The notes below the pieces were generated by a model. The model saw nothing but the letters and a program-made list of their open reading frames with translations, made no database searches and was not told where the DNA came from. From an uncultured Collinsella sp. (GTDB lineage: Bacteria > Actinomycetota > Coriobacteriia > Coriobacteriales > Coriobacteriaceae): DNA of 54,873 nucleotides. The stretch is from NCBI GenBank assembly GCA_902478875.1, contig CABSMZ010000001.1:1-54873 (forward strand). Reading direction: 5' to 3'. Both the position numbers and the translations under genes were made by a program. Below are positions 3,709 to 35,207 of the stretch, one piece after another. Each line of letters opens with the position of its first letter. The first letter of the stretch is position 1.

Positions 3709-3736
3709 GCAATGCAAATCTGCTTGCAAGTACGAT

Positions 3737-5535: not shown

Positions 5536-5632
5536 CTGCCGCTCAGCACGGCAGCCTTGATGAGCCCTTGCCCTTCTCCTGGGAATTATGATCGGGCATC
5601 AATCTGCTGAGTGGCCCGAATCCCAGGAGGGG
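5536..5632 (+). promoter_or_regulatory. Structured 5' leader with alternative helices, including an anti-Shine-Dalgarno helix (riboswitch-like)
   Basis: Helices 5536-41/5549-54, 5538-48/5605-15, 5557-67/5594-5602 and 5573-84/5621-32; the last covers the GGAGG SD. Confidence 0.5.
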
Positions 5633-5639
5633 ACTCTAT

Positions 5640-8321
<2,682 letters not shown>

Positions 8322-8344
8322 GTCGAAAGGCCATCCCTCCCACC

Positions 8345-8435
8345 GGCCCGACCGCCTGCGGGGTTTCTTCTTCGCTGGTCCTCGCGCTTCGCGCTGCGGG
8401 ATCGCTCAGAAGAAACCCCTCTCGGCGGTCGGGCC
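8345..8435. repeat. REP-like extended palindromic element
   Basis: ggcccgaccgcc/ggcggtcgggcc and ggggtttcttct/agaagaaacccc arms enclose GCGAAGC-type mini-hairpins on the minus strand. Confidence 0.75.
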
Positions 8436-8477
8436 TTCGGACAACCTCTCGGGACCGTAAGCTGAGGGAAAGTTTGT

Positions 8478-8512
8478 GAGCCGATCGAGCGTTTGCTCGA
8501 CCGGCTCTTTTT
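8478..8512 (+). terminator. Intrinsic terminator after the P-type ATPase
   Basis: gagccgatcgagc-gttt-gctcgaccggctc followed by a T-run. Confidence 0.8.
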
Positions 8513-8591
8513 GATTTAGGGCTTTGCCCGGCCAGCTCTTTTTGATTTAAAATACCTGCTCAGTTGTGATTTATGGTGCTGGGAGGCGCTT

Positions 8592-20291: not shown

Positions 20292-20319
20292 TTGACCGGA
20301 ACGCGTCCTTGGTTATACT
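20292..20319 (+). promoter_or_regulatory. Sigma-70-type promoter of tRNA-Phe
   Basis: TTGACC-16 bp-TATACT with an AT-rich upstream tract. Confidence 0.7.
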
Positions 20320-20351: not shown

Positions 20352-20406
<55 letters not shown>

Positions 20407-20424
<18 letters not shown>

Positions 20425-20640
20425 CCTTGAATTGACTAGGACCTCTGCAAAGGGGTCCTTTTCTTTTATGCAGCCCCCACATGGAATCGAACCCCGTGAG
20501 GGCGCGTAAGCGTTTGCCAGCGTAGCTCGCAAGGCGCGTAAGCGCCGCAGCGGTCCGTCCGCGCAGCGCGCGGACGCGATTCCCTTCCCCGCCACCTTGA
20601 ATTGACTAGGACCTCTGCAAAGGGGTCCTTTTCTTTTATG
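20407..20640 (+). repeat. tRNA-Phe-linked element: 64-bp perfect direct repeat (tRNA 3' end + terminator) around an anti-T-arm and hairpin scaffold
   Basis: 20407-20470 is identical to 20577-20640; ggaatcgaacccc (20483-95) is the reverse complement of 20401-13. Confidence 0.9.
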
Positions 20641-20890
20641 TAGGGTTCTGCGGAAACTGCGTCCCAGAATAAGGGCTCAGAACGGGACACACTTTCCGGT
20701 GCCTGCCTCCGGCGCGCGTACACACCTCGTCGCACCATTCCGAGCCCGCCCGCCCCAGACATTCCTCCCACTTTCGCGTCACTTTACAGACCGTTCGGTC
20801 GTCTGTCCGCACGCGCGGGTATACTCAAAACGATACTTTTCCTATGCAATACGATGCAGGCTCGGCCTGCACGATCCGAAGGGGGCAGTG

Positions 20891-21952
20891 ATGGAGAGGA
20901 TACTCGGCGTTAATCTCTCTGGCTGGTTCATTCCCGAGCCTTGGGTTACCCCGTCGCTATACGCGGCGACCGGTGCATCCAACGCGGCCGAGCTGCAGGA
21001 GGCCATGGGCACCGCCGCCTATAACGAGCGCATGCGCCGTCATTACGAGACGTTTGTGAGCGAGGACGATTTTCGCCGCATGGCGCAGATTGGCCTCAAT
21101 GCCGTGCGTCTGCCGGTACCCTGGTATGCCTTTGGCTCGCAGGAGTCCGATGCGTCCTACATCTCGGTTGTCGACTACATCGACCGTGCAATTGAGTGGG
21201 CTGCCAAGTACGACATCCGCGTGCTGCTTGATCTAGCAACTGTGCCCGGTGGCCAGGGCGATTCCAACGATTCGCCCACCACGCCGGAGGCTGTCGCCGA
21301 GTGGCATTCGTCCACCAACGGTCGTCATGTCGCACTCGACGTGCTCGAGCGCTTGGCCGATCGCTACGGCGAGGCCGAGAGCCTGCTGGGCATTGAGCTG
21401 CTGGATACGCCGCAGATGAGTGTCCGCAAGAGCCTCTTCACCATGACGGATGGCATTCCGGCGCACTACCTGCGCAACTTCTATCGCGATGCCTATGAGC
21501 TCGTCCGTTCGTATATGCCCGAGGATAAGATCGTCGTCTTCTCGTCGTCGGGGCATCCCAGCGAGTGGAAGCATTTTATGCGCGGCACTAAGTACAAGAA
21601 CGTCTACATGGACCTTCACCTGTACCATTACCGCGACGAGCATGCGCTCGACATCACGAGCCCCCGCGGGCTGACGACGGCGATTTCGCGTAACAAGCGC
21701 GAGCTTAAAGAAGCGATTTCGACTGGGTTCCCCGTGCTGGTGGGCGAATGGTCGGGCGCGGCGATCTTTGCCAACTCGTCGGTTACGCCCGAAGGCCGCA
21801 ATGCCTACGAGCGCGTGTTTATCGCCAACCAGCTGGCTTCGTTTGCGCCGGCTGCCGGTTGGTTCTTCCAAACGTGGAAGACCGAGAAGCGCATTGCAGC
21901 ATGGGACGCCCGCGCGGCACTCGGCACGCTCGAGCGCGGCATGATTGAATAG
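20891..21952 (+). CDS. Glycoside hydrolase family 5-like protein (exo-1,3-beta-glucanase-like), catalytic motif degenerate
   Basis: GVNLSGWFIPEPWVTPSLY, GLNAVRLPVPW and VGEWS motifs, but ELLDTP in place of ELLNEP. Confidence 0.8.
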   Translation: MERILGVNLSGWFIPEPWVTPSLYAATGASNAAELQEAMGTAAYNERMRRHYETFVSEDDFRRMAQIGLNAVRLPVPWYAFGSQESDASYISVVDYIDRAIEWAAKYDIRVLLDLATVPGGQGDSNDSPTTPEAVAEWHSSTNGRHVALDVLERLADRYGEAESLLGIELLDTPQMSVRKSLFTMTDGIPAHYLRNFYRDAYELVRSYMPEDKIVVFSSSGHPSEWKHFMRGTKYKNVYMDLHLYHYRDEHALDITSPRGLTTAISRNKRELKEAISTGFPVLVGEWSGAAIFANSSVTPEGRNAYERVFIANQLASFAPAAGWFFQTWKTEKRIAAWDARAALGTLERGMIE

Positions 21953-21958
21953 GTTGAT

Positions 21959-22837
21959 ATGACGCAAAACAGCGCCCGCACGGGCAAACTTTATGTGGTC
22001 GGTACGCCCATCGGTAACCTGGGCGACCTGTCTCCGCGCGTCGGCGAGGCATTTGCCGCCGCCGATGCCATTTGCTGCGAGGACACGCGTGTGACGTCAA
22101 AGCTGCTGATGCACCTGGGCATTTCCAAGCCGCTTGTCCGTTGCGACGAGAATGTGATCGCCAGCCGCGCCGCCGGCCTAGTCGACCGTCTGCTGGCGGG
22201 GGAGACCCTCGCCTTTGCCTCGGACGCCGGCATGCCGAGCGTGTCCGATCCCGGCCAGGCGCTGGTCGAGGCGGCACGTGAGGCCGATGTACCCGTAGAA
22301 GTTATTCCCGGGCCCTCTGCTTGCGTCACGGCGCTCGTTTCGTCCGGCATTCCCTGCGAGCATTTTTTCTTCGAGGGCTTTTTGGGCCGAAAGCACGGCG
22401 ACCGTGTGCGCCGTTTGCAGCGCCTTGCCGTGGTGCCCGGCGCGCTCATCTTCTACGAGTCTCCACATCGCATCGTGGCGACGCTCGAGGCCGTGGCCGA
22501 GGTCTTTCCCCAGCGCGTGGTCGCTGTCTGCCGCGAACTCACCAAGCTGCATGAGGAGGTCTTGCGCGGGCCCGCCGACCAGCTTGCCGAAGAACTGCGT
22601 GCTCGTGGCGAGGTAAAGGGCGAGATTGCGCTGGTTATCGCGCCGCCGAGCGAGGATGAGGAGGCCGGTATCGTGCCGGTTGGCGCAGCGGCGGCGGATC
22701 CCGACGAGGCCCTGCGCGAGGATATCCGCGCCGCGCTCGAGGAGGGGGAGCCCGCGTCTGCGGTGGCCAAGCGCCTGTCTCAGAAGTATTCGCGCCGCAA
22801 GCGCGATGTCTATGCCATGGTGCTCGATATGCAATAG
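21959..22837 (+). CDS. rsmI: 16S rRNA C1402 2'-O-methyltransferase
   Basis: LYVVGTPIGNLGD, CEDTR, SDAGMPSVSDPG, IPGPSA, FYESPHR and RELTKLHEE motifs. Confidence 0.95.
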   Translation: MTQNSARTGKLYVVGTPIGNLGDLSPRVGEAFAAADAICCEDTRVTSKLLMHLGISKPLVRCDENVIASRAAGLVDRLLAGETLAFASDAGMPSVSDPGQALVEAAREADVPVEVIPGPSACVTALVSSGIPCEHFFFEGFLGRKHGDRVRRLQRLAVVPGALIFYESPHRIVATLEAVAEVFPQRVVAVCRELTKLHEEVLRGPADQLAEELRARGEVKGEIALVIAPPSEDEEAGIVPVGAAAADPDEALREDIRAALEEGEPASAVAKRLSQKYSRRKRDVYAMVLDMQ

Positions 22838-22906
22838 ATGGAGGATATCCAGCCCTTGCGCTAGAATCATCCTCTGTATGCAACGTTTTTCTGGAGGACA
22901 AACCCC

Positions 22907-24508
22907 ATGGATCAAAGCAAGCCTTCGTTCTTTATCACGACGCCCATCTACTACGTCAACGCCGATCCGCACCTGGGCACGGCTTATTCCACCATCATCG
23001 CCGACGTTCAGGCTCGCTATCGCCGCTCCGCCGGCTATAACGTCAAGTTCCTGACCGGCATGGACGAGCACGGCGAGAAGGTCGCCGAGGCCGCAGCCAA
23101 GCACAACATGACGCCTCAGGAGTGGACCGACAGCCAGGCTCCGCACTTCAAGGAGCTTTGGAACAAGCTCGAGATCTCCAACGACGACTTCATCCGCACC
23201 ACCGAGCCGCGCCAGCACCATGCCGTGCAGTACCTGTGGGAGCGCATGAAGGAGTCCGGCTACCTGTATAAGGGCAGCTACGATGGCTGGTACTGTGTGC
23301 CCGACGAGACCTACTTCACCGATACGCAGGTCCAGAAGGGCGACGAGGAGTACGGCAGCGTCGGCCAGCACCTGTGCCCCGACTGCCACCGTCCGCTTGA
23401 GCGCGTGCAGGAGGAGTCCTACTTCTTTAAGCTTTCTGCCTTCCAGGACAAGCTGCTCAAGCTCTATGACGAGCACCCTGACTTTGTCGAGCCTGCGTTC
23501 CGTATGAACGAGGTACGCAGCTTTGTCGAGGGCGGCCTTAACGACCTTTCCGTGAGCCGCACGAGCTTTGACTGGGGCATTCAGGTCCCGTTTGACGAGG
23601 GCCACGTGACCTACGTGTGGTTCGATGCGCTGCTCAACTACATGACGGCCGTCGGCTACGGTGTCGACACCGACGAGGCACGTGCCGAGCTGGCCTATCG
23701 CTGGCCTGCGCAGTTCCACATCGTGGGTAAGGACATCATCCGCTTCCACTGCGTCATTTGGCCCGCCATGCTCATGGCCATCGGCGAGGCCCTGCCCGAG
23801 CACGTCTTTGCCCACGGCTTCCTGACCGTGCGCAATGCCGAGACTGGCAAGGCCGAGAAGATGTCCAAGAGCCGCGGCAACGCCATCGCTCCGCAGGACG
23901 TTATCGACATGCTGGGCGTCGAGGGCTATCGCTACTACTTCATGACCGACGTCGTTCCCGGTACCGACGGCGCCATCAGCTTCGATCGCATGGAGCAGGT
24001 CTACAACGCCGACCTGGCCAACAGCTGGGGCAATCTGATTTCGCGTTCGCTCAACATGAGCGCAAAGTACTTTGACGGCTGCGCCCCGGCTAAACCGGCG
24101 TCTGCCGACGCGTTCGACAACCCGCTGGCAAAGATCGCCGATGGTCTGGTCGAGCGCTACATGGCCAAGATGGACGTGCTCGATTACGGTGGGGCCAAGG
24201 ACGAGGTCATGGAGCTCATCCATGCTGCCAACCACTACATCGAGGACTCCGAGCCCTGGGCGCTTGCCAAGGACGAGGCCAAGGCTGACGAGCTGGCGTT
24301 CGTGATCTACAACCTGCTCGAGGCCATCCGCATTGCCGCTCACCTGCTGATGCCGCTCATGCCCCAGACTTCTGCCGAGGCCCTGCGCCGTCTGTCCTGT
24401 GAGGGCGAGGCCGCGAGCGACGACCTCAAGGGCATTTGCACTTGGGGCCTGCTTGCCGGCGGTCAGCCCGTCGAGAAGGGTGAGCCGCTGTTCCCGCGTC
24501 TGGGCTAA
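22907..24508 (+). CDS. metG: Methionine--tRNA ligase (short form without C-terminal appended domain)
   Basis: ITTPIYYVN..PHLGT, TGMDEHG, YVWFDAL, GKDIIRFH and KMSKS motifs. Confidence 0.97.
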   Translation: MDQSKPSFFITTPIYYVNADPHLGTAYSTIIADVQARYRRSAGYNVKFLTGMDEHGEKVAEAAAKHNMTPQEWTDSQAPHFKELWNKLEISNDDFIRTTEPRQHHAVQYLWERMKESGYLYKGSYDGWYCVPDETYFTDTQVQKGDEEYGSVGQHLCPDCHRPLERVQEESYFFKLSAFQDKLLKLYDEHPDFVEPAFRMNEVRSFVEGGLNDLSVSRTSFDWGIQVPFDEGHVTYVWFDALLNYMTAVGYGVDTDEARAELAYRWPAQFHIVGKDIIRFHCVIWPAMLMAIGEALPEHVFAHGFLTVRNAETGKAEKMSKSRGNAIAPQDVIDMLGVEGYRYYFMTDVVPGTDGAISFDRMEQVYNADLANSWGNLISRSLNMSAKYFDGCAPAKPASADAFDNPLAKIADGLVERYMAKMDVLDYGGAKDEVMELIHAANHYIEDSEPWALAKDEAKADELAFVIYNLLEAIRIAAHLLMPLMPQTSAEALRRLSCEGEAASDDLKGICTWGLLAGGQPVEKGEPLFPRLG

Positions 24509-24615
24509 GACGCAGCGCGCCATATCGGCAATTTGCTGTTTAGATGTAAGGGCATGGCCGCAACGGTCCATGCCCTTTCGTTTCAAGACGCCGCCATCAT
24601 GCTAAGGAGGCAACT

Positions 24616-25476
24616 ATGACAACTTCGCCTTTGGCAAACCCCACGGCAACAAGGGAGCTGCTGGAGGAGTTTGGCCTTGCGACCAAGCATCGCCTGGGCC
24701 AGAACTTCCTGATCGACAACCATGTAATTGAGCGCATTTGCGAGCTTGCCGAGCTTGCAGGCGATGAGCGCGTGCTCGAGGTTGGTCCGGGCGTTGGTAC
24801 GCTCACGCTTGCGCTGTTGCAGGAGGCGGCGTGCGTCACGTCGATCGAGGCCGATCCCGAGCTCGAGCCGGTGCTCGATGCTCACGCCGCCGACTACGCC
24901 AACTTCCGCTTTATCATGGGTGACGCGCTTAAGGTGGGCCCGGAGCAGATTGAGCAGGCTGCGGGCGGTGAGCCGACGGTATTTGTCGCGAACTTGCCCT
25001 ATAACGTGGCGGCGACGATCATTTTGCAATTTTTCCAGACGATGCCGGCGCTCAAGCGCGCCGTCGTCATGGTGCAAAAGGAGGTTGCCGATCGCATTGC
25101 CGCAGTGCCGGGCAACAAGACCTATGGCGGCTATACGGCAAAGCTTGGCCTGTATGCGCAGGTAACGGGTCGCTTTGAGGTGCCGCCGCGTTGCTTTATG
25201 CCGGCGCCACACGTGGACTCGGCCGTCGTGCGTATCGACCGTGTTGACGGTGTGGTGCCCGAAGGACTCGATCGCGAATTTGTGGCCCGCGTGATTGACG
25301 CTGCATTTGCTCAGCGTCGCAAGACCATCCGCAATTCCATGAGCGCCAACGGCTTTGCCAAGGACGTGCTCGATGCCGCCTTTGAGGCTTGCGGTATCGC
25401 ACCCACCACGCGCGCCGAGACGCTCGGCGTCGCCGACTTTGTGTGCCTGGCTCGGGAGCTTTCCCATGACGCTTAA
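24616..25476 (+). CDS. rsmA: 16S rRNA adenine dimethyltransferase KsgA
   Basis: LGQNFL, VLEVGPGVG, VANLPYN, MVQKEVA and AFAQRRKT motifs. Confidence 0.96.
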   Translation: MTTSPLANPTATRELLEEFGLATKHRLGQNFLIDNHVIERICELAELAGDERVLEVGPGVGTLTLALLQEAACVTSIEADPELEPVLDAHAADYANFRFIMGDALKVGPEQIEQAAGGEPTVFVANLPYNVAATIILQFFQTMPALKRAVVMVQKEVADRIAAVPGNKTYGGYTAKLGLYAQVTGRFEVPPRCFMPAPHVDSAVVRIDRVDGVVPEGLDREFVARVIDAAFAQRRKTIRNSMSANGFAKDVLDAAFEACGIAPTTRAETLGVADFVCLARELSHDA

Positions 25477-26383
25477 TGCCGAACGCGTGACGTTTACCAA
25501 GAAAAAGAAGACGGTTGCTTGTCCCGTGCCCTTGGCACCGCTTGCCGACACACATGCGCATCTGCTTTCGTTCTGGGGCAAGGATGTGCCCGAGACACTC
25601 GTGCGTGCCAAGGCGGCAGGCATCGACCTGTTGGTGACGGTCTTCGACCCCATCGCCGACAAGCGCAGCGTGACGGACTATAGCGACTGGCTCGTGCGCG
25701 AAATTCTGCCGATGCAGGATATCCCGCAGATCAAGTATCTTGCCGGCGTGCATCCGTATGGCGCGCCGGACTATACCGACGACATTCACGCGCAGGTTGT
25801 TGCTGCGCTTGATGACCCTTTGTGCGCCGGTATTGGCGAAATCGGTCTGGACTACCACATGGACTATGACGACGATATCGCGCCGGCACCCCATAACGTG
25901 CAGATTGACTGCATGGCGCGCCAGCTCGAGCTTGCCGTGCGTCGTAACGTGCCGGTGGAGCTGCATCTGCGTCACGAGGACATGGACCAGGAGCGTACCT
26001 CGCACGTGGACGCCTACAACGTGCTTCGTGAGGTGGGCGTGCCCCAGGCCGGTTGTGTGCTGCACTGTTTTGGCGAGGACCGCGCCACGATGGAGCGCTT
26101 TGTGGAGTTGGGCTGCTATATCGCCTATGGTGGTGCGGCCACCTTTAAGCGCAACGACGACGTGCGCGAGGCATTTGCGGCAACCCCACTCGATCGAATA
26201 TTGTTCGAGACGGATTGCCCGTATATGGCTCCGGAGCCCATCCGCGGTCTTGAATGCGAGCCCGCAATGATCTCCATTACGGCAAACGCGCTGGTTAACG
26301 ACCGTGTCGATCGCACTGGTGAGGACGCCGAAACAATCGCGCATGCCGCTTGGGAAAATGCCTGCAAACTTTTTCAAAAATAG
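25466..26383 (+). CDS. TatD family hydrolase
   Basis: DTHAH, AGVHP, IGEIGLDY, LHCF and ETDCPY motifs. Confidence 0.92.
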   Translation: MTLNAERVTFTKKKKTVACPVPLAPLADTHAHLLSFWGKDVPETLVRAKAAGIDLLVTVFDPIADKRSVTDYSDWLVREILPMQDIPQIKYLAGVHPYGAPDYTDDIHAQVVAALDDPLCAGIGEIGLDYHMDYDDDIAPAPHNVQIDCMARQLELAVRRNVPVELHLRHEDMDQERTSHVDAYNVLREVGVPQAGCVLHCFGEDRATMERFVELGCYIAYGGAATFKRNDDVREAFAATPLDRILFETDCPYMAPEPIRGLECEPAMISITANALVNDRVDRTGEDAETIAHAAWENACKLFQK

Positions 26384-26426
26384 TTCTTGCGTTCGCGGTG
26401 GCGCTCCGTTATTCTAATTCCTGCAC

Positions 26427-26513
26427 GCGGGCGTGGCGGAATTGGCAGACGCGTACGGTTCAGGTCCGTATGGGGGCAACCCCATGAAGGTTCAAGTCCT
26501 TTCGCCCGCACCA
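26427..26513 (+). tRNA. tRNA-Leu(CAG)
   Basis: 87 nt with long variable arm; anticodon arm tacgg-ttCAGgt-ccgta; ends CCA. Confidence 0.96.
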
Positions 26514-26744
26514 TTGATTGAAAGAGCTCCCAGCAATGGGAGCTTTTTTGTTATGTGCCCATCGCGGGGACTTGAACCTGCGAAGGAGCGAGCGTCAAGA
26601 AAACGCGGAGCGTTTTTAGCGAGCTGGCAAGGACGCCGGCAGGCGGCCGATGCCGGTGCGGATCCGCGAAGCGGATACGCGGACGTCCTTTCGCCCGCAC
26701 CATTAAATGAAAGAGCTCCCAGCAATGGGGGCTTTTTTGTTATG
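26496..26744 (+). repeat. tRNA-Leu-linked element: 60-bp direct repeat (57/60 identical) around an anti-T-arm and conserved scaffold
   Basis: 26496-26555 vs 26685-26744; ggacttgaacct (26568-79) is the reverse complement of 26488-99; scaffold shared with the tRNA-Arg copies. Confidence 0.9.
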
Positions 26745-26801
26745 CACGATCTCCTTGGACGGGTATCCTAATGGCAACGTGTGCCTATCAGAGGAGAGAC
26801 C

Positions 26802-27740
26802 ATGCTGTTTTCCGGTATCATCGCCGCCCTTACCGGCCTTTTGATTCCCATCATCATCCTGTTGCTGCTGCTCCCCAACGCCTGTTATGTCGTTGAACAG
26901 CAGCACGCCGTAATCATCGAGCGCTTGGGTAAGTTCAATCGTATCGTCAACGCGGGCTTCCACGTGAAGGTGCCCGTGATCGACCGCAAGGCCGCCACGG
27001 TGAGCCTGCGCACCATGAAAAACGGTTTTGGCATCGACGTTAAGACCCAGGACAACGTGACCATCGGCCTTGAGGTCTCCGCTCAGTACCACGTGAGCTA
27101 CGACATGGGCGCCGGCCCGGCAGATTCGGGCATCTACAAGAGCTACTACATGCTGCAGGAGCCCGTCGACCAGATGCGTGATTTCATCACCGACGCCCTG
27201 CGCTCTTCGATTCCTGTCTACACACTCGATGAGGTCTTTGCCAAGAAGGATGACATCGCCAAGGATGTCAACGCTACCGTTTCCGAGCAGATGGCCGCCT
27301 ACGGCTTCACCCTCGTGTCGACGCTCATCACCAAAATCGCACTGCCGACCGAGGTTGAGAACTCCATGAACGACATCAACGCCGCCCAGCGCAAGCGCGC
27401 TGCGGCACAGGAGCTCGCCGAGGCAGACCGCATCAAGCGCGTCACCGAGGCGACCGCCGAGGCCGAGGCAATGGAAAAGGCGGGCGAGGGCATCGCCAAC
27501 CAGCGCAAGGCCATCGCACTGGGTATCAAAGATTCGCTCGAGATCATCCAGGAGACGGGTGTCGGCAATGACGAGGCCAACCAACTGTTCATGTTTACGC
27601 AGTGGTCCGAGATGATGACGGAGTTCGCTCGCACGGGTAAAACCTCGACGGTCGTGCTGCCGAGCGACTTTTCGCAGTCGGCCTCGATGTTCGAGCAGAT
27701 GCTGGCCGCCGGCAAAGTTCAAAACGATTCGAAGGAGTAG
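26802..27740 (+). CDS. SPFH/band 7 (stomatin/prohibitin-like) membrane protein
   Basis: N-terminal TM, IIERLGKF, KTQDNV, C-terminal AEA-rich coiled coil. Confidence 0.9.
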   Translation: MLFSGIIAALTGLLIPIIILLLLLPNACYVVEQQHAVIIERLGKFNRIVNAGFHVKVPVIDRKAATVSLRTMKNGFGIDVKTQDNVTIGLEVSAQYHVSYDMGAGPADSGIYKSYYMLQEPVDQMRDFITDALRSSIPVYTLDEVFAKKDDIAKDVNATVSEQMAAYGFTLVSTLITKIALPTEVENSMNDINAAQRKRAAAQELAEADRIKRVTEATAEAEAMEKAGEGIANQRKAIALGIKDSLEIIQETGVGNDEANQLFMFTQWSEMMTEFARTGKTSTVVLPSDFSQSASMFEQMLAAGKVQNDSKE

Positions 27741-27746
27741 ACGCGC

Positions 27747-28217
27747 GTGAAATACACCGTCGTTTGCGTCGGTAAGCTCAAGGAGCGCTTTTGGAAGGAC
27801 GCGTGCGCTGAGTACACCAAGCGCCTAGGTGCCTATGCCAAGGTGGATATCCGCGAGGTGGCCGATATCGACCCGGCTAAGGCGGGCGGCGTGGATGCCG
27901 CGCGCGACAAGGAGGGGGCGGCGATTCTTACAGCCCTGCCGCCTCGAGCACATGTAATCTTGCTGGCCATTGAGGGCAAAGAGCGCTCGAGCGAGGAACT
28001 TTCGGCGCGGCTCGATGATCTTATGCTACGTGGTAACAGCGACATCGCCTTTGTAATTGGCGGATCGGACGGCGTGAGCGATGACGTGCGCGCACGAGCC
28101 GACGAGATGCTCAGCTTTGGACGTATTACCTTGCCGCATAACTTGGCGCGCGTGGTGCTGCTGGAGCAGATCTACCGCGCCTGCAAGATTAGCCGCGGCG
28201 AGCCGTATCACAAATAG
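27747..28217 (+). CDS. rlmH: 23S rRNA pseudouridine-1915 methyltransferase
   Basis: VGKLKE, FVIGGSDG, TLPHNLARVVLLEQIYRA and GEPYHK motifs. Confidence 0.96.
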   Translation: MKYTVVCVGKLKERFWKDACAEYTKRLGAYAKVDIREVADIDPAKAGGVDAARDKEGAAILTALPPRAHVILLAIEGKERSSEELSARLDDLMLRGNSDIAFVIGGSDGVSDDVRARADEMLSFGRITLPHNLARVVLLEQIYRACKISRGEPYHK

Positions 28218-28290
28218 GTCAGCAATACGAAACAATGGCGTGGGACAATACCTTTCGTTTTGAGGAATGTGTCTGAAAGGACTATGCGAT

Positions 28291-29061
28291 ATGAAGATTG
28301 GATTTGTCGGTTTTGGCAATATGGCGAGCGCTATGGCCGATGGCTGGATCGCTGCCGGTGTAGCTGCGAGCGACATGTGCGCCTGCGCGGGTCGCTACGA
28401 CGCACTGGTTGAGCGCTGCGAGGCGCGCGGCATGGTCGCCTGCCACGATGCCGCCGAGGTTGTCGCCGCATCCGATATCGTGGTCGCTGCGGTCAAACCG
28501 TACATGATCGAGAAGGTATTCGCCCCGCTCAAGGATGCTCTTGCCAAAAAGGTCGTTCTGTCGGTTGCCTGGACCTGGGACAGTGCCAAGTGGGAGCAGG
28601 TCCTGCCGGGCGTCGCGCATATCTCGACGGTGCCCAACACGCCGGTTTCGGTGGACGAGGGCGTCATCGCCTGCGAGAAGGCTTCGACGCTTAACGACGA
28701 GCAGCGTGCTGTGGTGCTCGACCTGCTCGGTAAGCTTGGCGCTGTCGTCGAGCTCGACACAAGCCTGCTGTTTGTGGGCGGCACGGTGGGTGGTTGCGCT
28801 CCGGCGTTTGTCGCCATGGCAATCGAGGCCTTGGGCGATGCGGCGGTCAAGCACGGTATCCCGCGTGCGGATGCTTATCGCATTGTGAGCCAGATGGTGC
28901 TGGGTACGGCAAAGCTGCAGCTTGCAACTGGCCAGCATCCTGCGGCGATGAAGGATGCCGTATGCTCGCCCGGTGGTGCCACCATCAAGGGCGTCGTTGC
29001 GCTCGAGGACGCCGGCATGCGCAGCGCCCTGGTCAAGGCAATCGACGCAACCCTCCAGTAA
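28291..29061 (+). CDS. proC: Pyrroline-5-carboxylate reductase
   Basis: IGFVGFGNMA, AVKP, PNTP and VCSPGGATIKG motifs. Confidence 0.93.
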   Translation: MKIGFVGFGNMASAMADGWIAAGVAASDMCACAGRYDALVERCEARGMVACHDAAEVVAASDIVVAAVKPYMIEKVFAPLKDALAKKVVLSVAWTWDSAKWEQVLPGVAHISTVPNTPVSVDEGVIACEKASTLNDEQRAVVLDLLGKLGAVVELDTSLLFVGGTVGGCAPAFVAMAIEALGDAAVKHGIPRADAYRIVSQMVLGTAKLQLATGQHPAAMKDAVCSPGGATIKGVVALEDAGMRSALVKAIDATLQ

Positions 29062-29211
29062 AACCGACCAAAAAAGGGACAGTTTGTTTTGGTAGGTTTT
29101 TCCTGCGGTTTTGTCCTTTTAGCGAAAAGTGCCCCGCAACTGGCTCAATTCCAGTTGCGGGGCACTTGCGTTTGCCCAGATAAAACCGACCAAAATAAAC
29201 CTGTCCCTTTT
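29059..29211. repeat. REP/MITE-like element with ~30-bp imperfect terminal inverted repeats (GGGACAG...CTGTCCC) and an internal 17-bp perfect hairpin
   Basis: 29072-29100 vs 29182-29211 inverted; aagtgccccgcaactgg (29127-43)/ccagttgcggggcactt (29151-67); taaaaccgaccaaaa direct repeat at 29059 and 29181. Confidence 0.75.
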
Positions 29212-29217
29212 GGCAGG

Positions 29218-29391
29218 TTAGTCCCAGAAGCTGTCTTCTTCGTCCTCGGACTTGGGGCCGCGGTCGACATACATCTTATGGGTGCGCTTCTCCATTACAA
29301 AGGCAATAATCGCAAACAGCAGGATGCCGCCGGCGAAAAGGATGGCAAAACCGGTGCGGGTGCCAAACAAAAAGGAAAAAACTGCGTCCAT
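29218..29391 (-). CDS. Small 57-aa single-pass membrane protein (absent from the ORF track)
   Basis: Hand translation MDAVFSFLFGTRTGFAILFAGGILLFAIIAFVMEKRTHKMYVDRGPKSEDEEDSFWD*; AGAAGG RBS upstream. Confidence 0.7.
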   Translation of the reverse strand: MDAVFSFLFGTRTGFAILFAGGILLFAIIAFVMEKRTHKMYVDRGPKSEDEEDSFWD

Positions 29392-29502
29392 TGGGTGCCT
29401 TCTTGCGTAGTTGAGTTGGGTCGTAAACGCTCATAAGTATATACTTGCCCATACATGTACAAGGTTGCAACCTAAATGGAATGTATATCGCCGGAGGATC
29501 TA

Positions 29503-30786
29503 ATGCTTGATATCAAGTTTGTTCGCGAGAACCCCGATGCCATCGATGTCGCCATGGCTAACCGCCAGACGTCTTGGGATCGCGAGAAGTTCTTTGAGCT
29601 CGACGACGAGCGTCGTGCCGTCATCACCGAGGTTGAGGAACTTCAAGCCACGCGCAATGCCGAGTCCAAGAAGATCGGCGCCCTGATGAAGGAGGGCAAG
29701 AAGGACGAGGCCGAGGCCGCCAAGAAGGCCGTGCGCGCCGTCAACGAGAAGATTGACGGTCTGGCCGAGCGCCGCACCGCCCTCGAGCAGGAGCAGTACG
29801 ACTTCATGGCTCACCTGCCCAACATTCCTTGCGAGGCCACGCCGTACGGCAAGGACGAGGACGAGAACATCGAGCGCCGTCGTTGGGGCACCCCGCGCGA
29901 GTTCGACTTCGACTTTAAGCCGCACTGGGATCTGGGCACCGACCTCGACATCCTTGACTTCGAGCGCGGCAACAAGCTCTCCGGCAGCCGTTTCACCGTT
30001 CTCGGTGGCGCCGGCGCCCGCCTGGAGCGCGCCCTTATCAACTTCTTCCTCGATACGCACACCAGCCGTGGCTTTAAGGAGTGGTGGCCGCCTATCGTCG
30101 TCAAGCGTCAGACCATGTTCGGCACGGGCCAGCTGCCCAAGTTCGAAGACGACGCCTATCACGTCTCGGGCGACAACTTCCTGATTCCCACCGCCGAGGT
30201 CGTGCTCACCAACCTGCACGCCGGCGAGGTCCTCGATGCCGACACTCTGCCGCGCCGCTACACCGCCTTCACCCCCTGCTTCCGCGAGGAGGCCGGTTCC
30301 GCCGGTCGCGATACCCGTGGCATCATCCGTCAGCACGAGTTCGACAAAGTCGAGATGGTCAAGTTCGCTAAGCCGGAGGAGTCCGACGAGGAGCTCGAGA
30401 GCATGACCGCCGAGGCCGAGTACCTGCTGCAGCAGCTGGGCCTTCCGTATCGCGTGATTAGCCTGTGCACCGGCGACTTGGGCTTCTCTGCCCGTCAGAC
30501 CTACGACATCGAGGTCTGGCTGCCGAGCTACAACGCCTACAAGGAGATCAGCTCCTGCTCCAACTGCGGCGACTTCCAAGCCCGTCGCGCCAACATCAAG
30601 TATCGCGACCCCGAGAACTTCAAGGGTTCGCGCTACCTGCACACCCTTAACGGTTCCGGCCTGCCGGCTGGTCGTACCATGGCTGCCATTCTGGAGAACT
30701 ACCAGAACGCCGACGGCACCATCACGATCCCCGAGGTCCTGCGTCCCTACATGGGCGGCCTCGAGAAGATTGAGCCGGTCGCGTAA
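29503..30786 (+). CDS. serS: Serine--tRNA ligase
   Basis: MLDIK start after [32 protein letters not shown] and HTLNGSG motifs. Confidence 0.98.
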
Positions 30787-30809
30787 CTTGGCTGCATAGG
30801 CGATATGCA

Positions 30810-30837
30810 AGGGCGCTCCTTCGGGGGCGCCCTATTT
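30810..30837 (+). terminator. Intrinsic terminator after serS
   Basis: agggcgctcc-ttcg-ggggcgccct followed by attt. Confidence 0.7.
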
Positions 30838-30886
30838 CGTGCGCAGGTCCATACCATGCCGTGCGGACAGCTCAATAGAAAACACA

Positions 30887-30900
30887 CGAACAACTGTTCT
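30887..30900. promoter_or_regulatory. Candidate LexA (Cheo-type) SOS box
   Basis: cGAAC-aact-GTTCt, about 60 bp upstream of ORF 30960. Confidence 0.55.
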
Positions 30901-30959
30901 GTATACAGCAATCTACCTGCTATGCTTTTGCTAAATAAGAGCGAGAGAAAGGGGACGCG

Positions 30960-31337
30960 ATGGAGCTGTTTGATGATCGGGTGGTTTTGTTTGAGAGCGA
31001 CGAGGGCGGGGAGTACCTGCTTGTAACGTGTGAGCCGTCTGGCATGGGTGGCCTGGTGGTTCGACAGACGAGCGAGGGTCCGTTGACCCAATGGTGCTAC
31101 GAGGAGTCGCCGCATGTGGTTGAGACGTTTGTGGCGCACGAGGGGCTTGTGGCCCTGGAGCATTTCTATGGGGTCCGGACATCTAACCAGGTTGCTCGCA
31201 TGTTGAGTATCTCGTTTGCCGATTATGATTGTGCCCAGCGGGTGAGATCGCTCCTGAGGGAACTTGATGCTAAGTTTGACGTGATCGAAAAGCCAATCGA
31301 TCGTACGGGGAACGACGGTATATGCGGAGCAGCATGA
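30960..31337 (+). CDS. Hypothetical protein (125 aa)
   Basis: ATG after GAAAGGGG; acidic, globular-looking ORF with no recognised motif. Confidence 0.7.
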   Translation: MELFDDRVVLFESDEGGEYLLVTCEPSGMGGLVVRQTSEGPLTQWCYEESPHVVETFVAHEGLVALEHFYGVRTSNQVARMLSISFADYDCAQRVRSLLRELDAKFDVIEKPIDRTGNDGICGAA

Positions 31338-31414
31338 CAAAACTGCGTTCCACAAAAAAGTTTGAGATTGTGCTTGACTCCAATAAGCTAAAGTGGTTTT
31401 ATATGTCTTGCGCT

Positions 31415-31491
31415 GCGGCGTTACCTCAGCTGGATAGAGGGTCTGACTACGAATCAGAACGTCATAGGTTCGAATCCTATACGCCGCACCA
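31415..31491 (+). tRNA. tRNA-Arg(ACG), copy 1
   Basis: 77 nt; anticodon arm tctga-ctACGaa-tcaga; ends CCA. Confidence 0.96.
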
Positions 31492-31545
31492 ATAGAACTT
31501 AAAGCCTCCGGCAACGGGGGCTTTTCTTTTATGCCGGCGCCGCAT

Positions 31546-31576
31546 GGATTCGAATCTCAGCCGAGGCGTGAGCGTC
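31546..31576 (+). repeat. Truncated tRNA-linked element (anti-T-arm plus first bases of the scaffold)
   Basis: ggattcgaatct (1 mismatch to anti-T-arm) then cgaggcgtgagcgtc, matching the scaffold start at 31802. Confidence 0.75.
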
Positions 31577-31654
31577 TTAATCATCACTTCGTAAAATTTT
31601 TCTAAATTGTCGCTTGACCCATCGAGGGGTCACGTGCATAATAATCCGTGCGTT

Positions 31655-31731
31655 GCGGCGTTACCTCAGCTGGATAGAGGGTCTGACTACGAATCAGAAC
31701 GTCATAGGTTCGAATCCTATACGCCGCACCA
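31655..31731 (+). tRNA. tRNA-Arg(ACG), copy 2
   Basis: Identical to copy 1; own promoter TTGACC-17-CATAAT (31614-31642). Confidence 0.96.
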
Positions 31732-31958
31732 ACTGAGTTTTAAGCCTCCGGCAACGGGGGCTTTTCCTTTACGGGGGCATTGCGGAGATTCGAACCTCGT
31801 TCGAGGCGCGAGCGTCAAGAAAACGCGGAGCGTTTTTAGCGAGCGGGCGAGTCCGCCGACAGGCGGGCGAAGCCGGTGCGGATCCGCGCAGCGGATGCGC
31901 GGAATCCTATACGCCGCACCAATTGAATTTTAAAGCCTCCGGTAACGGAGGCTTTTCT
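31712..31958 (+). repeat. tRNA-Arg-linked element (full)
   Basis: Anti-T gattcgaacct 31787-97; scaffold 31802-31901; tRNA 3' end repeated from 31902 (period 190) with a diverged terminator copy. Confidence 0.9.
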
Positions 31959-32079
31959 TATATCGCGATGCGTCGAAGATCGCATCAAGTGGTCAAAATG
32001 AGTAAAAATCAAATTCAATAACTTTTTTTGAAAAACGCTTGACCTTTATTCAGTCCATGTGCATAATAATCAACAAGTT

Positions 32080-32156
32080 GCGGCGTTACCTCAGCTGGAT
32101 AGAGGGTCTGACTACGAATCAGAACGTCATAGGTTCGAATCCTATACGCCGCACCA
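32080..32156 (+). tRNA. tRNA-Arg(ACG), copy 3
   Basis: Identical to copy 1; own promoter TTGACC-17-CATAAT (32039-32067). Confidence 0.96.
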
Positions 32157-32386
32157 TTTGAGATTAAAGCTCCCGGCAACGGGGGCTTTTCTTTTACGTA
32201 AGCAATACATGGATTCGAACCTCGGTCGAGGCGCGGGCGTAAAGAAAACGCGGAGCGTTTTTAGCCCGCGGGCGAGCGCGCCGGCAGGCGGGCGAAGCCG
32301 GTGCGGATCCGCGAAGCGGATGCGCGGAATCCTATACGCCGCACCATTTGAGATTAAAGCTCCCGGCAACGGGGGGCTTTTCTTTT
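32137..32386 (+). repeat. tRNA-Arg-linked element (full)
   Basis: Anti-T ggattcgaacct 32211-22; scaffold; 32137-32195 repeated at 32327-32386 with one extra G. Confidence 0.9.
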
Positions 32387-32510
32387 GCGCCAGCTTGAGT
32401 GCTTTCGTCCAAAGGGACGATTTCCTGTCGACTCGTGTAAGATTCCGAGTAGGTGTCGCGGCCCATCCGCGACCACTCCTTCTTCAAGCGACCGATCAGG
32501 GTGATATTTC

Positions 32511-34952
32511 GTGGCAGAGCGTCCGACATACAAGCTCAGGTTTCTCGATCCCAAGAAGCGCTTTCCGGCGATGCCCGAGCAGCCTGCGGGACGCTCATAT
32601 GGCGTGGTCTGGAAACTCTTTGGCGAGGACCAGCATGAATCTTGTTATGTCGTCGAATTCGTTGGCAAAAGTCATGTGTCGCTTTTGGGCTACGTAAGCG
32701 TTTCGGGTGAGGTGTACAAGGTGGACCGCCCCGTCAGCGAGGCTCCGCTGCCCAACGATCCCGACATGGAACTGGTCCTTGACGAGTCGGATTCCAGTAT
32801 TGGTGAGATTATGGTAAGGGAAGTCAGCGGTGCAATGCACGCATGTGCGCAAACTGTCGGTTCTCCCGAAGGCCCCATGCGCGAGCAGTCCGACCACGAG
32901 ACATGGAATTCGACCCGCGCCCTTCCTTACGGCGAGTTCATGGCATCGATGTTCCTGCGCTACGTGATATTCGCTGACTCCGAAAATGCCATTGCGAGCA
33001 CGGCGGATGCCGGCGGACTCGACGAGGGTATGCAAAATGTTGTCGACAAGATCAAGCTCGTAAAGTTGCCCGAGCCGGTCGAGGTGTTTTTGGGCTTTAA
33101 CACGGCACCGCTACCTGACGCTATCGAGACGCTGCTTTACCGCGTTGACCATGCCGAGAATCCGAGCGGTATCGAGCGCTATGCCGCCACCCTTATGAGC
33201 GAAATTGACTTGCCCCGTCTGCGCACCATCGCTGCCAAGTCCGAAATGAGCCTGGCGCGCATCGACCGGTCAAAGCTGTTTTATCTCAATTTTGATCGTA
33301 GCCTGCTGGACCAGGACGAGATTGACATGCTGCTTGCCATCGAGTGCCGTCTTAACCGCCTTTCCGGCATCCTTGAGCGCATCGGGGCCGGATTGGCCCC
33401 CGCGGCCTCGTCGCCGAGCCTTGAGGGCTGTGCACTCTTTGATTCGTGGCATATCGCTAAGACGACCAACGATGTTCCCCGACTGCTCGATACGGCCTCG
33501 AGCGATAACCCGTGGGGCAAACCGGGTACGGTGGCTTGCCAGCCGGGCGGCGAGTGGGACGTGCGCACCCGTTTTGCGCGAATCGTTGAGGCGCTCAACG
33601 TGGTCACACGGCTCGACTATACCTATCGGGCAAACGTTGCCGAGGGGATTATGCTCGTTCGGTTTGGGCGGTCTGTCGTGGATGCTATGCCGCAACGTGA
33701 ATACGACGCCCAAGATGACGCCTGGCGCGAGCTGGACGAGGACACGCGTGCGATCTGGGCCGCGGAGCACGATGCGCGCGTGGCACTCACGCTTGCGGCA
33801 GCGTGTTTTGCCGCGGGCGCCTGCATCACGCGCTGCTATGTGCAGATTGCTGCTCCCGACAGCGAGCAGGGCGAGCGCGTTGTCGCAACGTATTACTTTG
33901 GGCGCGCGGCCTATCTGGCCGATAGCGTGTCTGTCGCCAAGGATCTTGAGAGCATGGACATGGACGATATGCCGTGCAAGTGTGTACTTGAGGCGTATGA
34001 GTCAACCGCTCCGGAGACGATTGAGCCTGCGGAGGTTCATGCTCGTCCGCGTGATGACCATCGCACGCTGCCGCCGGCGCTGCGCGATCTGCTACTTGCC
34101 GATACGGCTGACGAGTTGGAGGTCATGGAAGAGGCCGACGACCCATACGTGGCCCGTGTTGTTGAATTGCGCGAGCAGGCAAAAGTCGACCGTACAGGTG
34201 CTTTTGAAGGCTTTTCCCGTCTTGTCGAGGAGTTGGAGGCTAAGTGCGCCGTCGCCGAGCTTTTGGCGACAGGTCCGGTTCAAACGCAGTTTTGTGATAA
34301 CCAGCTGGTGCGCATGGTGCTACCGGTGTTGGAAGAAGACCGCTCGGTGCGAATCCTTCGTGCGCCCGATGCGCTGTACTTTGCCCAGCACGAGATCTGC
34401 AGCTTTTACGCCGAGCAAGAGGACTTTGAACGAGCGCTGCCCGAGGTGCGCCATCTTTACGATCTGGCGCGCTCGTCCATGCAATCGCACTTTGCGCTCA
34501 TCAACGTGCTTGCGCGTCTGGAGCGCTTTGACGAGATTATCGAGGTGGCGCGCCACGGCCTACGTATTGCCAGCGATCGTTCTGCAATCGGCTACCTGTT
34601 CTATCGCTTGGCGTTTGCCTATTGGAATTGCGATCAGCTCGACCTGGCGCTGGCTTGTTACCGTCTGGTGCCGCGTGGAGAGGAGTCGGGCAGCAGCGCG
34701 CTGGAAGAAATGCAGGGCCTTATGAACGAGATGGGTGTCAGCGAGCCTCCGACGTTCGAGGAAGCGGTCGAGGCCATCCGCAAGGCTGGACTCGAGCTGC
34801 CGCCAGTGTCTGCGGTGACCAATCAGCTTGCGGATGCCGCTGTGCAACTGGTCGACAACGGTTTCTTTTTCCTGGCACGCGGTTGCATCTTCCAAATGTG
34901 GCGCACCATGGGCAACGACGAGCTCGGCTCCCTCAACCGCTCGCTGGGGTAG
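32511..34952 (+). CDS. Large hypothetical protein with C-terminal TPR-like helical repeats
   Basis: 813-aa ORF with typical codon usage; C-terminal FERAL..., FDEIIEVARHGL and YRLAFAYW...LDLALACY look TPR-like. Confidence 0.65.
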   Translation: MAERPTYKLRFLDPKKRFPAMPEQPAGRSYGVVWKLFGEDQHESCYVVEFVGKSHVSLLGYVSVSGEVYKVDRPVSEAPLPNDPDMELVLDESDSSIGEIMVREVSGAMHACAQTVGSPEGPMREQSDHETWNSTRALPYGEFMASMFLRYVIFADSENAIASTADAGGLDEGMQNVVDKIKLVKLPEPVEVFLGFNTAPLPDAIETLLYRVDHAENPSGIERYAATLMSEIDLPRLRTIAAKSEMSLARIDRSKLFYLNFDRSLLDQDEIDMLLAIECRLNRLSGILERIGAGLAPAASSPSLEGCALFDSWHIAKTTNDVPRLLDTASSDNPWGKPGTVACQPGGEWDVRTRFARIVEALNVVTRLDYTYRANVAEGIMLVRFGRSVVDAMPQREYDAQDDAWRELDEDTRAIWAAEHDARVALTLAAACFAAGACITRCYVQIAAPDSEQGERVVATYYFGRAAYLADSVSVAKDLESMDMDDMPCKCVLEAYESTAPETIEPAEVHARPRDDHRTLPPALRDLLLADTADELEVMEEADDPYVARVVELREQAKVDRTGAFEGFSRLVEELEAKCAVAELLATGPVQTQFCDNQLVRMVLPVLEEDRSVRILRAPDALYFAQHEICSFYAEQEDFERALPEVRHLYDLARSSMQSHFALINVLARLERFDEIIEVARHGLRIASDRSAIGYLFYRLAFAYWNCDQLDLALACYRLVPRGEESGSSALEEMQGLMNEMGVSEPPTFEEAVEAIRKAGLELPPVSAVTNQLADAAVQLVDNGFFFLARGCIFQMWRTMGNDELGSLNRSLG

Positions 34953-35044
34953 GCGAAGCCTCCAAGGAGGAAAGGATGCTAGGCAATTAGAAAATTTCCT
35001 CTTGCCCATCCTTGGCTGTTTGGTTACTATAGAACGGCTGTTAC

Positions 35045-35135
35045 GGAGAGCTGACCGAGAGGCCGAAGGTGCTCGCCTGCTAAGCGAGTATGCCCCAAAA
35101 GGGCATCTGGGGTTCGAATCCCCAGCTCTCCGCCA
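35045..35135 (+). tRNA. tRNA-Ser(GCT)
   Basis: 91 nt with long variable arm; anticodon arm ctcgc-ctGCTaa-gcgag; ends CCA; promoter TTGCCC...TACTAT upstream. Confidence 0.96.
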
Positions 35136-35189
35136 GTAAGACTTTAAAGAAGGGTTCCGAAAGGGGCCCTTTTTTAGTTGAACCACGTT

Positions 35190-35207
35190 AGCTGGGGATT
35201 CGAACCC
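35190..35207 (+). repeat. 18-nt antisense copy of the tRNA-Ser T-arm (element remnant)
   Basis: agctggggattcgaaccc is the exact reverse complement of 35110-35127. Confidence 0.85.

Follow-up and report, generated by a model that had tools for sequence, protein, structure and literature searches.

Structured tail units behind tRNA genes of Collinsella resemble the tRNA-linked repeats of Escherichia coli

Among described systems, the closest to the units reported here are the tRNA-linked repeats (TLRs) of Escherichia coli, which were first described by Egan and Landy in 1978 and catalogued by Rudd in 1999 (cited in PMC8144298). [quoted passage not shown] The same paper describes the rRNA-linked members RrA, RrB, and RrF as arising by read-through of a first terminator and lying between two terminators, with a 3' repeat of the upstream stable RNA end that is thought to guide processing (PMC8144298). 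The stretch of DNA analyzed here (the window) is the 54,873-nt contig CABSMZ010000001.1 of assembly GCA_902478875.1 (label G000), from an uncultured Collinsella sp. Between 20.3 and 35.2 kb it has six tRNA genes, namely, Phe, Leu(cag), three copies of Arg(acg), and Ser(gct), and behind each lies a complete or truncated noncoding unit, here called a tail unit, that has an inverted copy of the tRNA's T-arm near its start and, when complete, a direct copy of the tRNA's 3' end at its finish. That the Collinsella units are a remote variant of the already known RtT/TLR kind is well supported.

At lysV of E. coli K-12, tRNA, trailer, and terminator precede an inverted T-arm of 13 nt, which lies about 51 nt downstream of the tRNA; next come a GC-rich scaffold and, at the end, the tRNA tail from the T-loop, again with trailer and terminator. 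At tyrT/tyrV, each 178-nt unit has a 10-nt inverted tail of tRNA-Tyr and ends in a tail copy. The RtT model RF00391, used on these loci as a positive control, scores 133 to 137 bits on the tyrT units and 47.3 bits on the lysV unit. Because the RtT units of E. coli carry a host-matched antisense arm too, the kind is already known, and the view taken in a first-pass annotation of the window, that the tyrT repeats of E. coli do not explain such an arm, falls with the inverted arms of lysV and tyrT. The Collinsella units share with the E. coli ones their position directly 3' of the tRNA on the same strand, a tail copy that starts from the T-loop, a repeated trailer and terminator, a period of 160 to 190 nt, tandem arrays of 1 to 5 units, GC-rich hairpins, the inverted copy of the host tail near the unit start, and the occurrence of one family behind different tRNAs with its ends matched to each (RF00391 matches both E. 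coli loci). They differ in that Collinsella belongs to Actinomycetota and that the two have no detectable sequence or profile relation. Unlike that of RtT, the Collinsella arm always spans the T-loop and the T-stem 5' strand in complement, and a covarying hairpin arises from its pairing with the scaffold; moreover, the Collinsella units are also found behind tmRNA, whereas rRNA-linked copies of them were not found. RrA, RrB, and RrF further differ in lying behind 5S rRNA and in binding Hfq and CsrA through GGA motifs.

In the window, tRNA genes were called with ARAGORN and the Rfam tRNA model, and terminators and promoter-like sites were taken from scans. A full unit reads, 5' to 3', as the tRNA trailer with its intrinsic terminator, a spacer of about 12 nt, the inverted T-arm, a GC-rich scaffold of 80 to 105 nt, and the tail copy, in which the tRNA sequence is repeated directly from a point within the T-loop as far as the CCA end, usually together with trailer and terminator. 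Reading of the sequence and a repeat search both confirmed that the Phe, Leu, Arg2, and Arg3 loci share this architecture, with tail-copy start pairs at 20407/20577 (period 170), 26496/26685 (189), 31714/31904 (190), and 32139/32329 (190). The tail copies of the window are exact over 18 to 21 nt, as against the last 18 to 19 nt of the upstream tRNA in the E. coli TLRs. The 37-nt identity that had been pointed out between the Leu and Arg2 scaffolds (26588-26624 versus 31808-31844) is exact, and the Arg1 and Ser(gct) units are truncated as described, with the arm present and the second 3' end absent. Promoter-like sites were found before the tRNAs only, and terminator-like hairpins after each tRNA and each tail copy; at the Leu locus the terminator scan made no call, though the sequence shows a hairpin and, after it, a T-run. 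The features are as follows.

20352..20426, + strand: tRNA-Phe(gaa), host of unit 1 (ARAGORN, Rfam tRNA model; promoter-like site 20292-20319)
20427..20482, + strand: Phe trailer, terminator 1 (stem 20438-20459 plus T-run), and short spacer (terminator scan, sequence)
20483..20495, + strand: Phe antisense arm, GGAATCGAACCCC, a 13-nt inverted copy of tRNA positions 20401-20413 (inverted match)
20496..20576, + strand: Phe scaffold, subfamily B, shortened (blastn to the copies on contigs C99 and C63; weak match to covariance model R1 at 20485-20585)
20577..20643, + strand: Phe direct repeat from the T-loop onward, with trailer and terminator 2 (67 nt, 99% identical to 20407-20473; terminator 20608-20629)
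26427..26513, + strand: tRNA-Leu(cag), host of unit 2 (ARAGORN, Rfam tRNA model)
26568..26579, + strand: Leu antisense arm, GGACTTGAACCT, 12 nt (GCGGG just 5' of the arm pairs with CCCGC of the tail copy)
26580..26684, + strand: Leu scaffold, subfamily A, with helix 1 and three hairpins (R1 132.5 bits, covariation, sense transcriptome reads)
26685..26744, + strand: Leu direct repeat, trailer, and terminator 2 (60 nt, 95% identical to 26496-26555)
31415..31491, + strand: tRNA-Arg(acg) copy 1 (ARAGORN)
31546..31584, + strand: Arg1 truncated unit, a degenerate arm and the first scaffold bases (match of 9 nt to its own tRNA; second 3' end absent)
31655..31731, + strand: tRNA-Arg(acg) copy 2 (ARAGORN; promoter-like site 31614-31642)
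31781..31797, + strand: Arg2 antisense arm, an acceptor-complement block and T-arm complement with an internal deletion
31798..31903, + strand: Arg2 scaffold, subfamily A (R1 127.7 bits; orthologues 97% identical in other species)
31904..31963, + strand: Arg2 direct repeat, trailer, and terminator (repeat search, terminator scan)
32080..32156, + strand: tRNA-Arg(acg) copy 3 (ARAGORN)
32211..32222, + strand: Arg3 antisense arm, GGATTCGAACCT (inverted match)
32223..32328, + strand: Arg3 scaffold, subfamily A (R1 122 bits)
32329..32388, + strand: Arg3 direct repeat, trailer, and terminator (repeat search, terminator scan)
35045..35135, + strand: tRNA-Ser(gct) (ARAGORN)
35190..35207, + strand: Ser arm-only remnant, AGCTGGGGATTCGAACCC, an 18-nt inverted copy with the scaffold lost (adjoins the terminator of a convergent gene)

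Across G000 as a whole (an assembly of 286 contigs, 84% complete), 14 of the 41 tRNA genes have their own T-arm copied in inverted form 47 to 64 nt downstream, over up to 25 nt, and 10 of 12 measured offsets are 54 to 56 nt. The hosts are Phe, Leu-cag, the three Arg-acg genes, Ser-gct, Ser-cga, Lys-ttt, Gly-ccc, Gln-ttg, Val-tac, Glu-ttc, Lys-ctt, and Leu-caa. The same interval gives inverted matches of 9 to 25 nt for these hosts versus at most 7 nt for nonhost tRNAs. When each arm is compared with 36 distinct tRNA tails, its host is the best or tied-best match for 13 of the 14 arms and strictly the best for 9; the summed arm-host match is 173 versus 94.7 +/- 7.7 under random assignment, and 0 of 10000 permutations reach it, which bears out the earlier claim that the antisense segment tracks the host. 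The description of the arm as a T-arm copy is correct for the T-arm but incomplete, as the inverted tRNA runs from the 5' strand of the T-stem onward and at some loci continues into the acceptor 3' strand. Whereas the arm's boundary is sharp on one side, where the complement of the first T-stem base lies, its reach into the acceptor-3'-strand complement is variable and many arms have an internal deletion; in the Ser-cga arm on contig C3 all 25 nt are present. Since T-loop variants specific to the host (CAAGT, CGAGT, CGACC, and CGATT) are mirrored in the arms, these are true inverted copies and not generic TTCGA motifs or a GTTCRA-like consensus. The other end of the unit is matched as well: across 83 tRNA-linked first units, the tail copy is identical to the last 17 nt of the host, CCA included, in 69, and it begins inside the T-loop, at tRNA positions 55 to 59. 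At Phe, Leu, and Arg, the second trailer and terminator duplicate those of the host itself, with a trailer identity of 33 to 40 of 40 nt for Leu and a median of 34 (range, 11 to 40) for Arg.

The scaffolds fall into two subfamilies, A (Leu-cag, Arg, and Gly) and B (Phe, Val, Lys, and Gln). A further copy, on contig C46 of G000, has arms that match tmRNA, and in the near-complete genome G021 that unit directly follows the tmRNA gene. The family thus stands as real, as had been proposed, but it is larger than the window suggested, with 14 of 41 tRNA genes and one tmRNA-type copy in this genome. By blastn it is present in 23 of 24 other genomes of the genus. A covariance model, R1, built from seven subfamily-A scaffolds, retrieved 12 copies in G000, 14 in G021, and 14 in G003, as well as copies in 36 of 151 sampled genomes of the order, from 16 of 69 genera; because R1 is subfamily specific, 36 is a lower bound. 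In G021, a tRNA or tmRNA gene of the same strand immediately precedes each of the 14 matches. Among 80 other Collinsella loci, 112 of 129 matches have such a gene upstream on the same strand, 16 lie at locus edges, where adjacency is undecidable, and 1 has no tRNA or tmRNA gene within 391 nt. This search thus upholds the constant scaffold and the tRNA adjacency that had been read from the window. The unit behind Ser(gct), reduced to its arm here, has a full scaffold in two other Collinsella species. From other families of the order 17 loci were taken, 16 of them with a tRNA, and arm, scaffold, and tail copy are present at 16 of 16, behind hosts that include Thr-tgt, Met-cat, Arg-cct, Arg-ccg, Ala-cgc, Ala-tgc, Leu-gag, and Ser-tga, which are unused in G000. 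Of 401 sampled genomes of the phylum, 25 have the bare layout pattern (T-arm, 55 to 85 nt, inverted T-arm), some of them probably through convergent tRNA genes; in one genome, G539, the unit behind Gln-ttg has an arm and a 19-nt tail copy around a scaffold of another kind, about 150 nt long. The family is spread through the Coriobacteriales, with similar layouts elsewhere in the phylum, and records of Collinsella aerofaciens genomes contain the scaffold motif in a pattern scan.

Unit number is variable. Gly(ccc) is followed by two tandem units in G000, one in G021, and three in locus L048, and the Arg cluster has one or two per tRNA. Some later units of an array have a different 5' half, and the units of Leu-taa, Gln-ttg, and Lys-ttt are truncated or lost in one species and full in another, several of the truncations adjoining unrelated inserted DNA. 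The arrays may grow and shrink by unequal crossing-over between the repeated tails; many end in truncated units. At L048 (7530-7790), the later Gly-ccc units have a 131-nt period; terminator and arm are missing from them, and the last hairpin and the tail copy are all that they have in common with the first unit.

Conservation of the scaffold is that of a folded nucleic acid. In an alignment of the 129 matches from the 80 Collinsella loci, with 105 distinct rows, pairing is found in 95.1% of 3815 cells, a percentage inflated by the fitting of the alignment to the model structure, which leaves unaffected the contrast with controls using slid partners, which pair at 30 to 48%. Changes on both sides are found in 30 of 39 pairs, and 0 of 500 shuffles reached the observed pairing measures. 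As there are 374 G-U/U-G cells versus 30 A-C/C-A cells, it is the tRNA-sense strand that folds and is under structural selection. The sense fold of tRNA-Arg with its unit has a z score of -6.5, versus -1.3 for the reverse strand of the unit alone; this value and the 374-to-30 asymmetry rule out the reverse strand as a tRNA-like gene. In the first small hairpin, the arm's T-stem complement pairs with scaffold bases over a GNNA loop, and because 6 of its 7 pairs covary, the scaffold has become adapted to the T-stem of each host. In folds of single sequences, the arm and tail copy close a multibranch structure and leave the NCCA tail unpaired, most cleanly in the Ala(cgc) unit of G162, with a 17-bp arm-tail helix, four hairpins, a CACCA tail, a z score of -10.4, and a minimum-free-energy structure at a frequency of 0.55. 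The closing helices in the Phe, Gly, and Arg2 folds are shorter, with 7 bp for Phe. When tRNA-Arg is folded together with its unit, the arm instead pairs with the tRNA's own T-arm, and the two pairings are predicted to compete in the read-through transcript.

The units are transcribed in the sense direction. Stranded raw reads were available for one run from a related strain that is about 93% identical, made from a standard complementary DNA library, in which a discrete small RNA would be underrepresented. At the Leu locus, coverage of the tRNA strand is continuous, with 70 to 90 reads upstream, about 70 over terminator 1 and the arm, 95 to 130 over the scaffold (partly cross-mapped from the Arg units), and 58 to 75 over the tail copy and terminator 2; it is higher in the next gene, and the opposite strand is 5 to 10 times lower. 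The loose ends in this run are evidence both of that cross-mapping and of transcription of the Arg units. RNA contigs of runs X2, X9, and X13 end at the repeat boundaries, which is evidence of presence and not of RNA ends.

The likeness of the direct repeat to the att duplications left by tyrosine integrases raises the question of whether the units are scars of genomic islands or prophages, in which an integrase crossover in the T-loop duplicated the tRNA 3' end and the scaffold is a decayed element end. The duplication does start in the T-loop, like many tRNA att sites, and tRNA loci do receive insertions, such as the 5.3-kb insert in the tRNA-Gly(ccc) of locus L054. Scars would nevertheless hardly consist of a scaffold conserved with compensatory changes over genus and order, found behind more than 10 different tRNAs with arms that match each, and accompanied at Phe, Leu, and Arg by a duplicate of the host's own trailer and terminator. 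What lies between the tail copies is about 120 nt of structured noncoding DNA, without integrase or cargo and with an inverted arm, in which the units differ from att duplications. The genes around the units are ordinary, encoding a GH5 enzyme, a methylase, MetRS, KsgA, TatD, an SPFH protein, ProC, SerRS, and a carboxypeptidase; the open reading frames (ORFs) at 20.7 to 36.7 kb are housekeeping or without a Pfam match, and none of the neighbors at 20.4 to 36.7 kb is an integrase, transposase, or other recombinase, in agreement with the absence of an integrase that was first noted. Taken together, these observations make an origin as island scars very improbable. The L054 insert itself (about 900-6600, in one Collinsella species) places about 5.3 kb within tRNA-Gly(ccc) and duplicates the 3' half of the tRNA, starting at the anticodon loop, the tail units remaining behind the distal copy; it looks like a classical island insertion at a point of the tRNA other than the unit boundary.

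On the basis of the covariation with its many G-U pairs and of the sense transcription, we read the units as structured RNA. We consider it probable, if only somewhat so, that they are the Coriobacteriales counterpart of the E. coli TLR/RtT units, that is, a structured read-through RNA closed arm to tail and provided with a tRNA-like end. Each unit lies on the tRNA strand without a promoter of its own, bracketed by the tRNA terminator and a second terminator, and its RNA would arise when the first terminator is read through, as the coverage suggests. The 5' arm would pair with the 3' tail copy into a closing helix, the rest of the arm would form the small hairpin with its GNNA loop, and three more hairpins would stand at the junction. 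Such an RNA would end in a single-stranded NCCA tail, followed by a trailer that is the same as the tRNA's, and this tRNA-like end might allow RNase P, on the 5' side, and the 3'-trimming enzymes to cut the unit out as a discrete RNA. Processing of this sort is reported for the rtT RNA from the tyrT transcript. A comparison by idea only can be drawn with the t-elements of plant mitochondria, tRNA-like structures that serve as RNase P and RNase Z processing signals; they are partial tRNA mimics that recruit processing enzymes, in unrelated organisms and with unrelated sequences.

Several points weigh against this reading. For the Collinsella units, processing by RNase P and 3'-trimming enzymes is something that we infer, and the raw-read run has no sharp RNA starts or ends, with coverage of the unit no higher than that of its flanks. 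G-T pairs are tolerated in single-stranded DNA (ssDNA), so that the strand asymmetry alone cannot separate RNA from sense-strand ssDNA; many loops are GNA triloops closed by C-G, which are very stable in DNA; and the pairing percentage is inflated, as noted above. The tail copy of the tmRNA-linked units has decayed, with 6 to 8 mismatches of 17 at 9 of 9 loci. A function of the RNA, which would itself be conjectural, gives no account of matched units behind different tRNAs across families. Finally, the Collinsella family goes undetected by RF00391, which had no match in the window at its gathering score of 45 bits (only tRNAs were found by Rfam there) and none in nine unit loci at E <= 0.1, where Rfam matches besides tRNAs were at chance level; in the whole genomes G000 and G021 its sole match scored 17.5 bits at an unrelated place. 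Conversely, R1 scores the E. coli units at 7 to 10.8 bits. At each of the two E. coli loci these units are what it matches best, on the tRNA strand and in register, and yet the scores (E of 0.017 to 0.11 in searches of 1.2 to 1.7 kb) are too weak to be taken as homology to RtT. With regard to prior description, then, the kind is known from E. coli, whereas the Collinsella family itself is unmatched by the E. coli model.

The tRNA-like end also invites a functional interpretation, in which the released RNA presents the host tRNA 3' strand in a helix with an NCCA tail and thereby titrates or decoys processing nucleases, the CCA-adding enzyme, or tRNA-targeting toxins. The exactness of most tRNA-linked tail copies (69 of 83, CCA included), the closing helix with NCCA overhang in the folds, the host specificity of the arm, and the presence of units behind tmRNA, whose end is tRNA-like, would all fit such a mimic. 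It is less readily reconciled with the decayed tail copies of the tmRNA units, with the many arms that pair with only 4 to 7 nt of the tail, and with the perfect-complement arm of the Ala unit, which omits the wobble identity pairs of a real acceptor stem; evidence for a partner is nil. We therefore regard this role as distinctly unlikely.

The history of the units differs with the depth at which it is examined. A tree of 110 Collinsella scaffolds, trimmed of arm and tail, requires 8 changes of host label, where the minimum for eight labels is 7 and shuffled labels gave 56 to 64 in the ten values printed out of 200 shuffles. Because the scaffolds cluster by host tRNA, the unit of each locus has been inherited with its tRNA in Collinsella, and the original inference of a mobile element finds no support on the timescale of the genus. 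Across the families of the order, by contrast, scaffolds are most alike within a genome over different hosts (identity of 0.89 in G151, 0.83 in G073, and 0.69 in G027), the same host in different lineages does not have the nearest scaffold, and Leu(cag) has an A-type scaffold in Collinsella versus a B-like one in a sister genus. The within-genome likeness and the differing host sets imply either spread to new tRNAs with capture of the target tail in both orientations or concerted evolution, that is, gene conversion among the scaffolds atop an older, independent seeding.

The first of these options would be expected of a nonautonomous mobile DNA element whose scaffold inserts at or near the T-loop of tRNA and tmRNA genes, gaining inverted and direct copies of the target, folding as ssDNA, and moved by an enzyme encoded elsewhere or now lost. 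Besides the differences in host sets between families (with Thr-tgt, Met-cat, Arg-cct, Arg-ccg, Ala-cgc, and Leu-gag used elsewhere) and the scaffold relationships just described, such an element would explain why the scaffold is flanked by inverted repeats of target sequence and why the inserted block at Gly(ccc) encloses the terminator and gives way, after its last tail copy, to a different flank. However, no movement is seen since the genus radiated, and no copy was found away from a tRNA or tmRNA gene in G021 or, edge cases and one exception aside, in the 80 loci. Each unit keeps an RNA-level terminator, with compensatory changes between copies, and gene conversion between scaffolds of about 100 nt could also give the within-genome similarity. 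As regards an enzyme, there is no integrase or transposase in the window region, and neither a reverse transcriptase nor an IS110 enzyme co-occurs: among five unit-bearing genomes no candidate is consistently present, RVT_1 being found in 1 of 5 and the IS110 transposase (PF01548) in 2 of 5, with the PF01548 copies at other places. No DEDD recombinase ORF adjoins the units, as it would in an IS110/bridge-RNA system, and they depart from miniature inverted-repeat transposable elements in having no dispersal beyond tRNA and tmRNA genes, a duplication of 18 to 67 nt, and a grouping by host site within the genus. On this balance, a mobile DNA element has a minor but real chance of being correct.

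A broader reading, which we hold to be unlikely, is that RtT-like units form an ancient or repeatedly spreading class, linked to tRNA and tmRNA over distant phyla (Enterobacteria, Coriobacteriales, and other Actinomycetota), that colonizes tRNAs by copying the target's 3' end both ways. Such copying might, for instance, switch templates onto a terminated pre-tRNA transcript, its product then being integrated homologously at that locus. If so, targeting would come from hitchhiked host sequence and not from a site-specific enzyme, and the stop of the direct copy in the T-loop (positions 55 to 59) would mark where copying of the tRNA template ends.

Several other features of these genomes deserve mention. 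The Collinsella-1 RNA motif (RF01700), a structured RNA candidate tabulated by Weinberg et al. 2010 (PMC2864571), comes from the same genus. We rejected it as a tail unit, since its matches above the cutoff are at other loci only (G000:C181:3295-3445, 103.9 bits, and G021:C1:1015680-1015872); where the tail units recur behind many tRNAs, it occupies a single other locus. In G021 an intact tmRNA stands upstream of the tmRNA-type unit; on C46 of G000 (locus L017, about 8200-9100), its place is taken by an ORF's 3' end, with 110 aa visible, and the last bases of this ORF resemble those that end a tmRNA. The ORF has no Pfam match, so that its identification as a recombinase is unsupported; the junction may represent an element integrated in ssrA. 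A second short repeat family (GGGAC...CTTTCC...GCGGAAA...) lies right after the Phe unit (window 20645-20720) and also after tmRNA-type units, with several tandem copies on C46 of G000 (8300-8480). AT-rich inserts with the same starting end of about 28 nt follow truncated units behind Val-tac, Glu-ttc, and Gln-ttg (G000 C63, about 200-430, and C92, about 6300-6660, loci L020 and L033; G021 C1, about 1578470 onward, loci L030 and L034). The C92 insert is about 300 nt long, with an inverted copy of its starting end at the far side, and two long ORFs beside the G021 insert have no Pfam match. In the window itself, the Arg3 unit is immediately followed by an 813-aa ORF (32511-34952, + strand) to which Pfam assigns no family at E <= 1e-5, and an inverted repeat with 30-nt arms that are 73% complementary and 80 nt apart (29072-29211) lies between the ProC-like and SerRS genes.

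The literature covered here, comprising titles, abstracts, and text passages, holds no such units outside Enterobacteria, and the catalogue of Fremin and Bhatt 2021 (PMC8040213) may contain the motif. The Collinsella units place the same layout in a distant phylum, with an inverted host arm, a structurally selected scaffold, exact tail copies, and a linkage to tmRNA. The four features together argue against the layout being an enterobacterial accident; it has the look of something that recurs at tRNA loci, either as a solution or as a parasite. For annotation, such units account for many cases in which a tRNA gene is followed by an apparent att-site duplication yet by no island. They also provide a second independent family in which to ask what purpose the RNA serves and how its ends come to match each tRNA, and these questions are open to experiment because Collinsella aerofaciens, whose genome records contain the scaffold motif, is cultivable.

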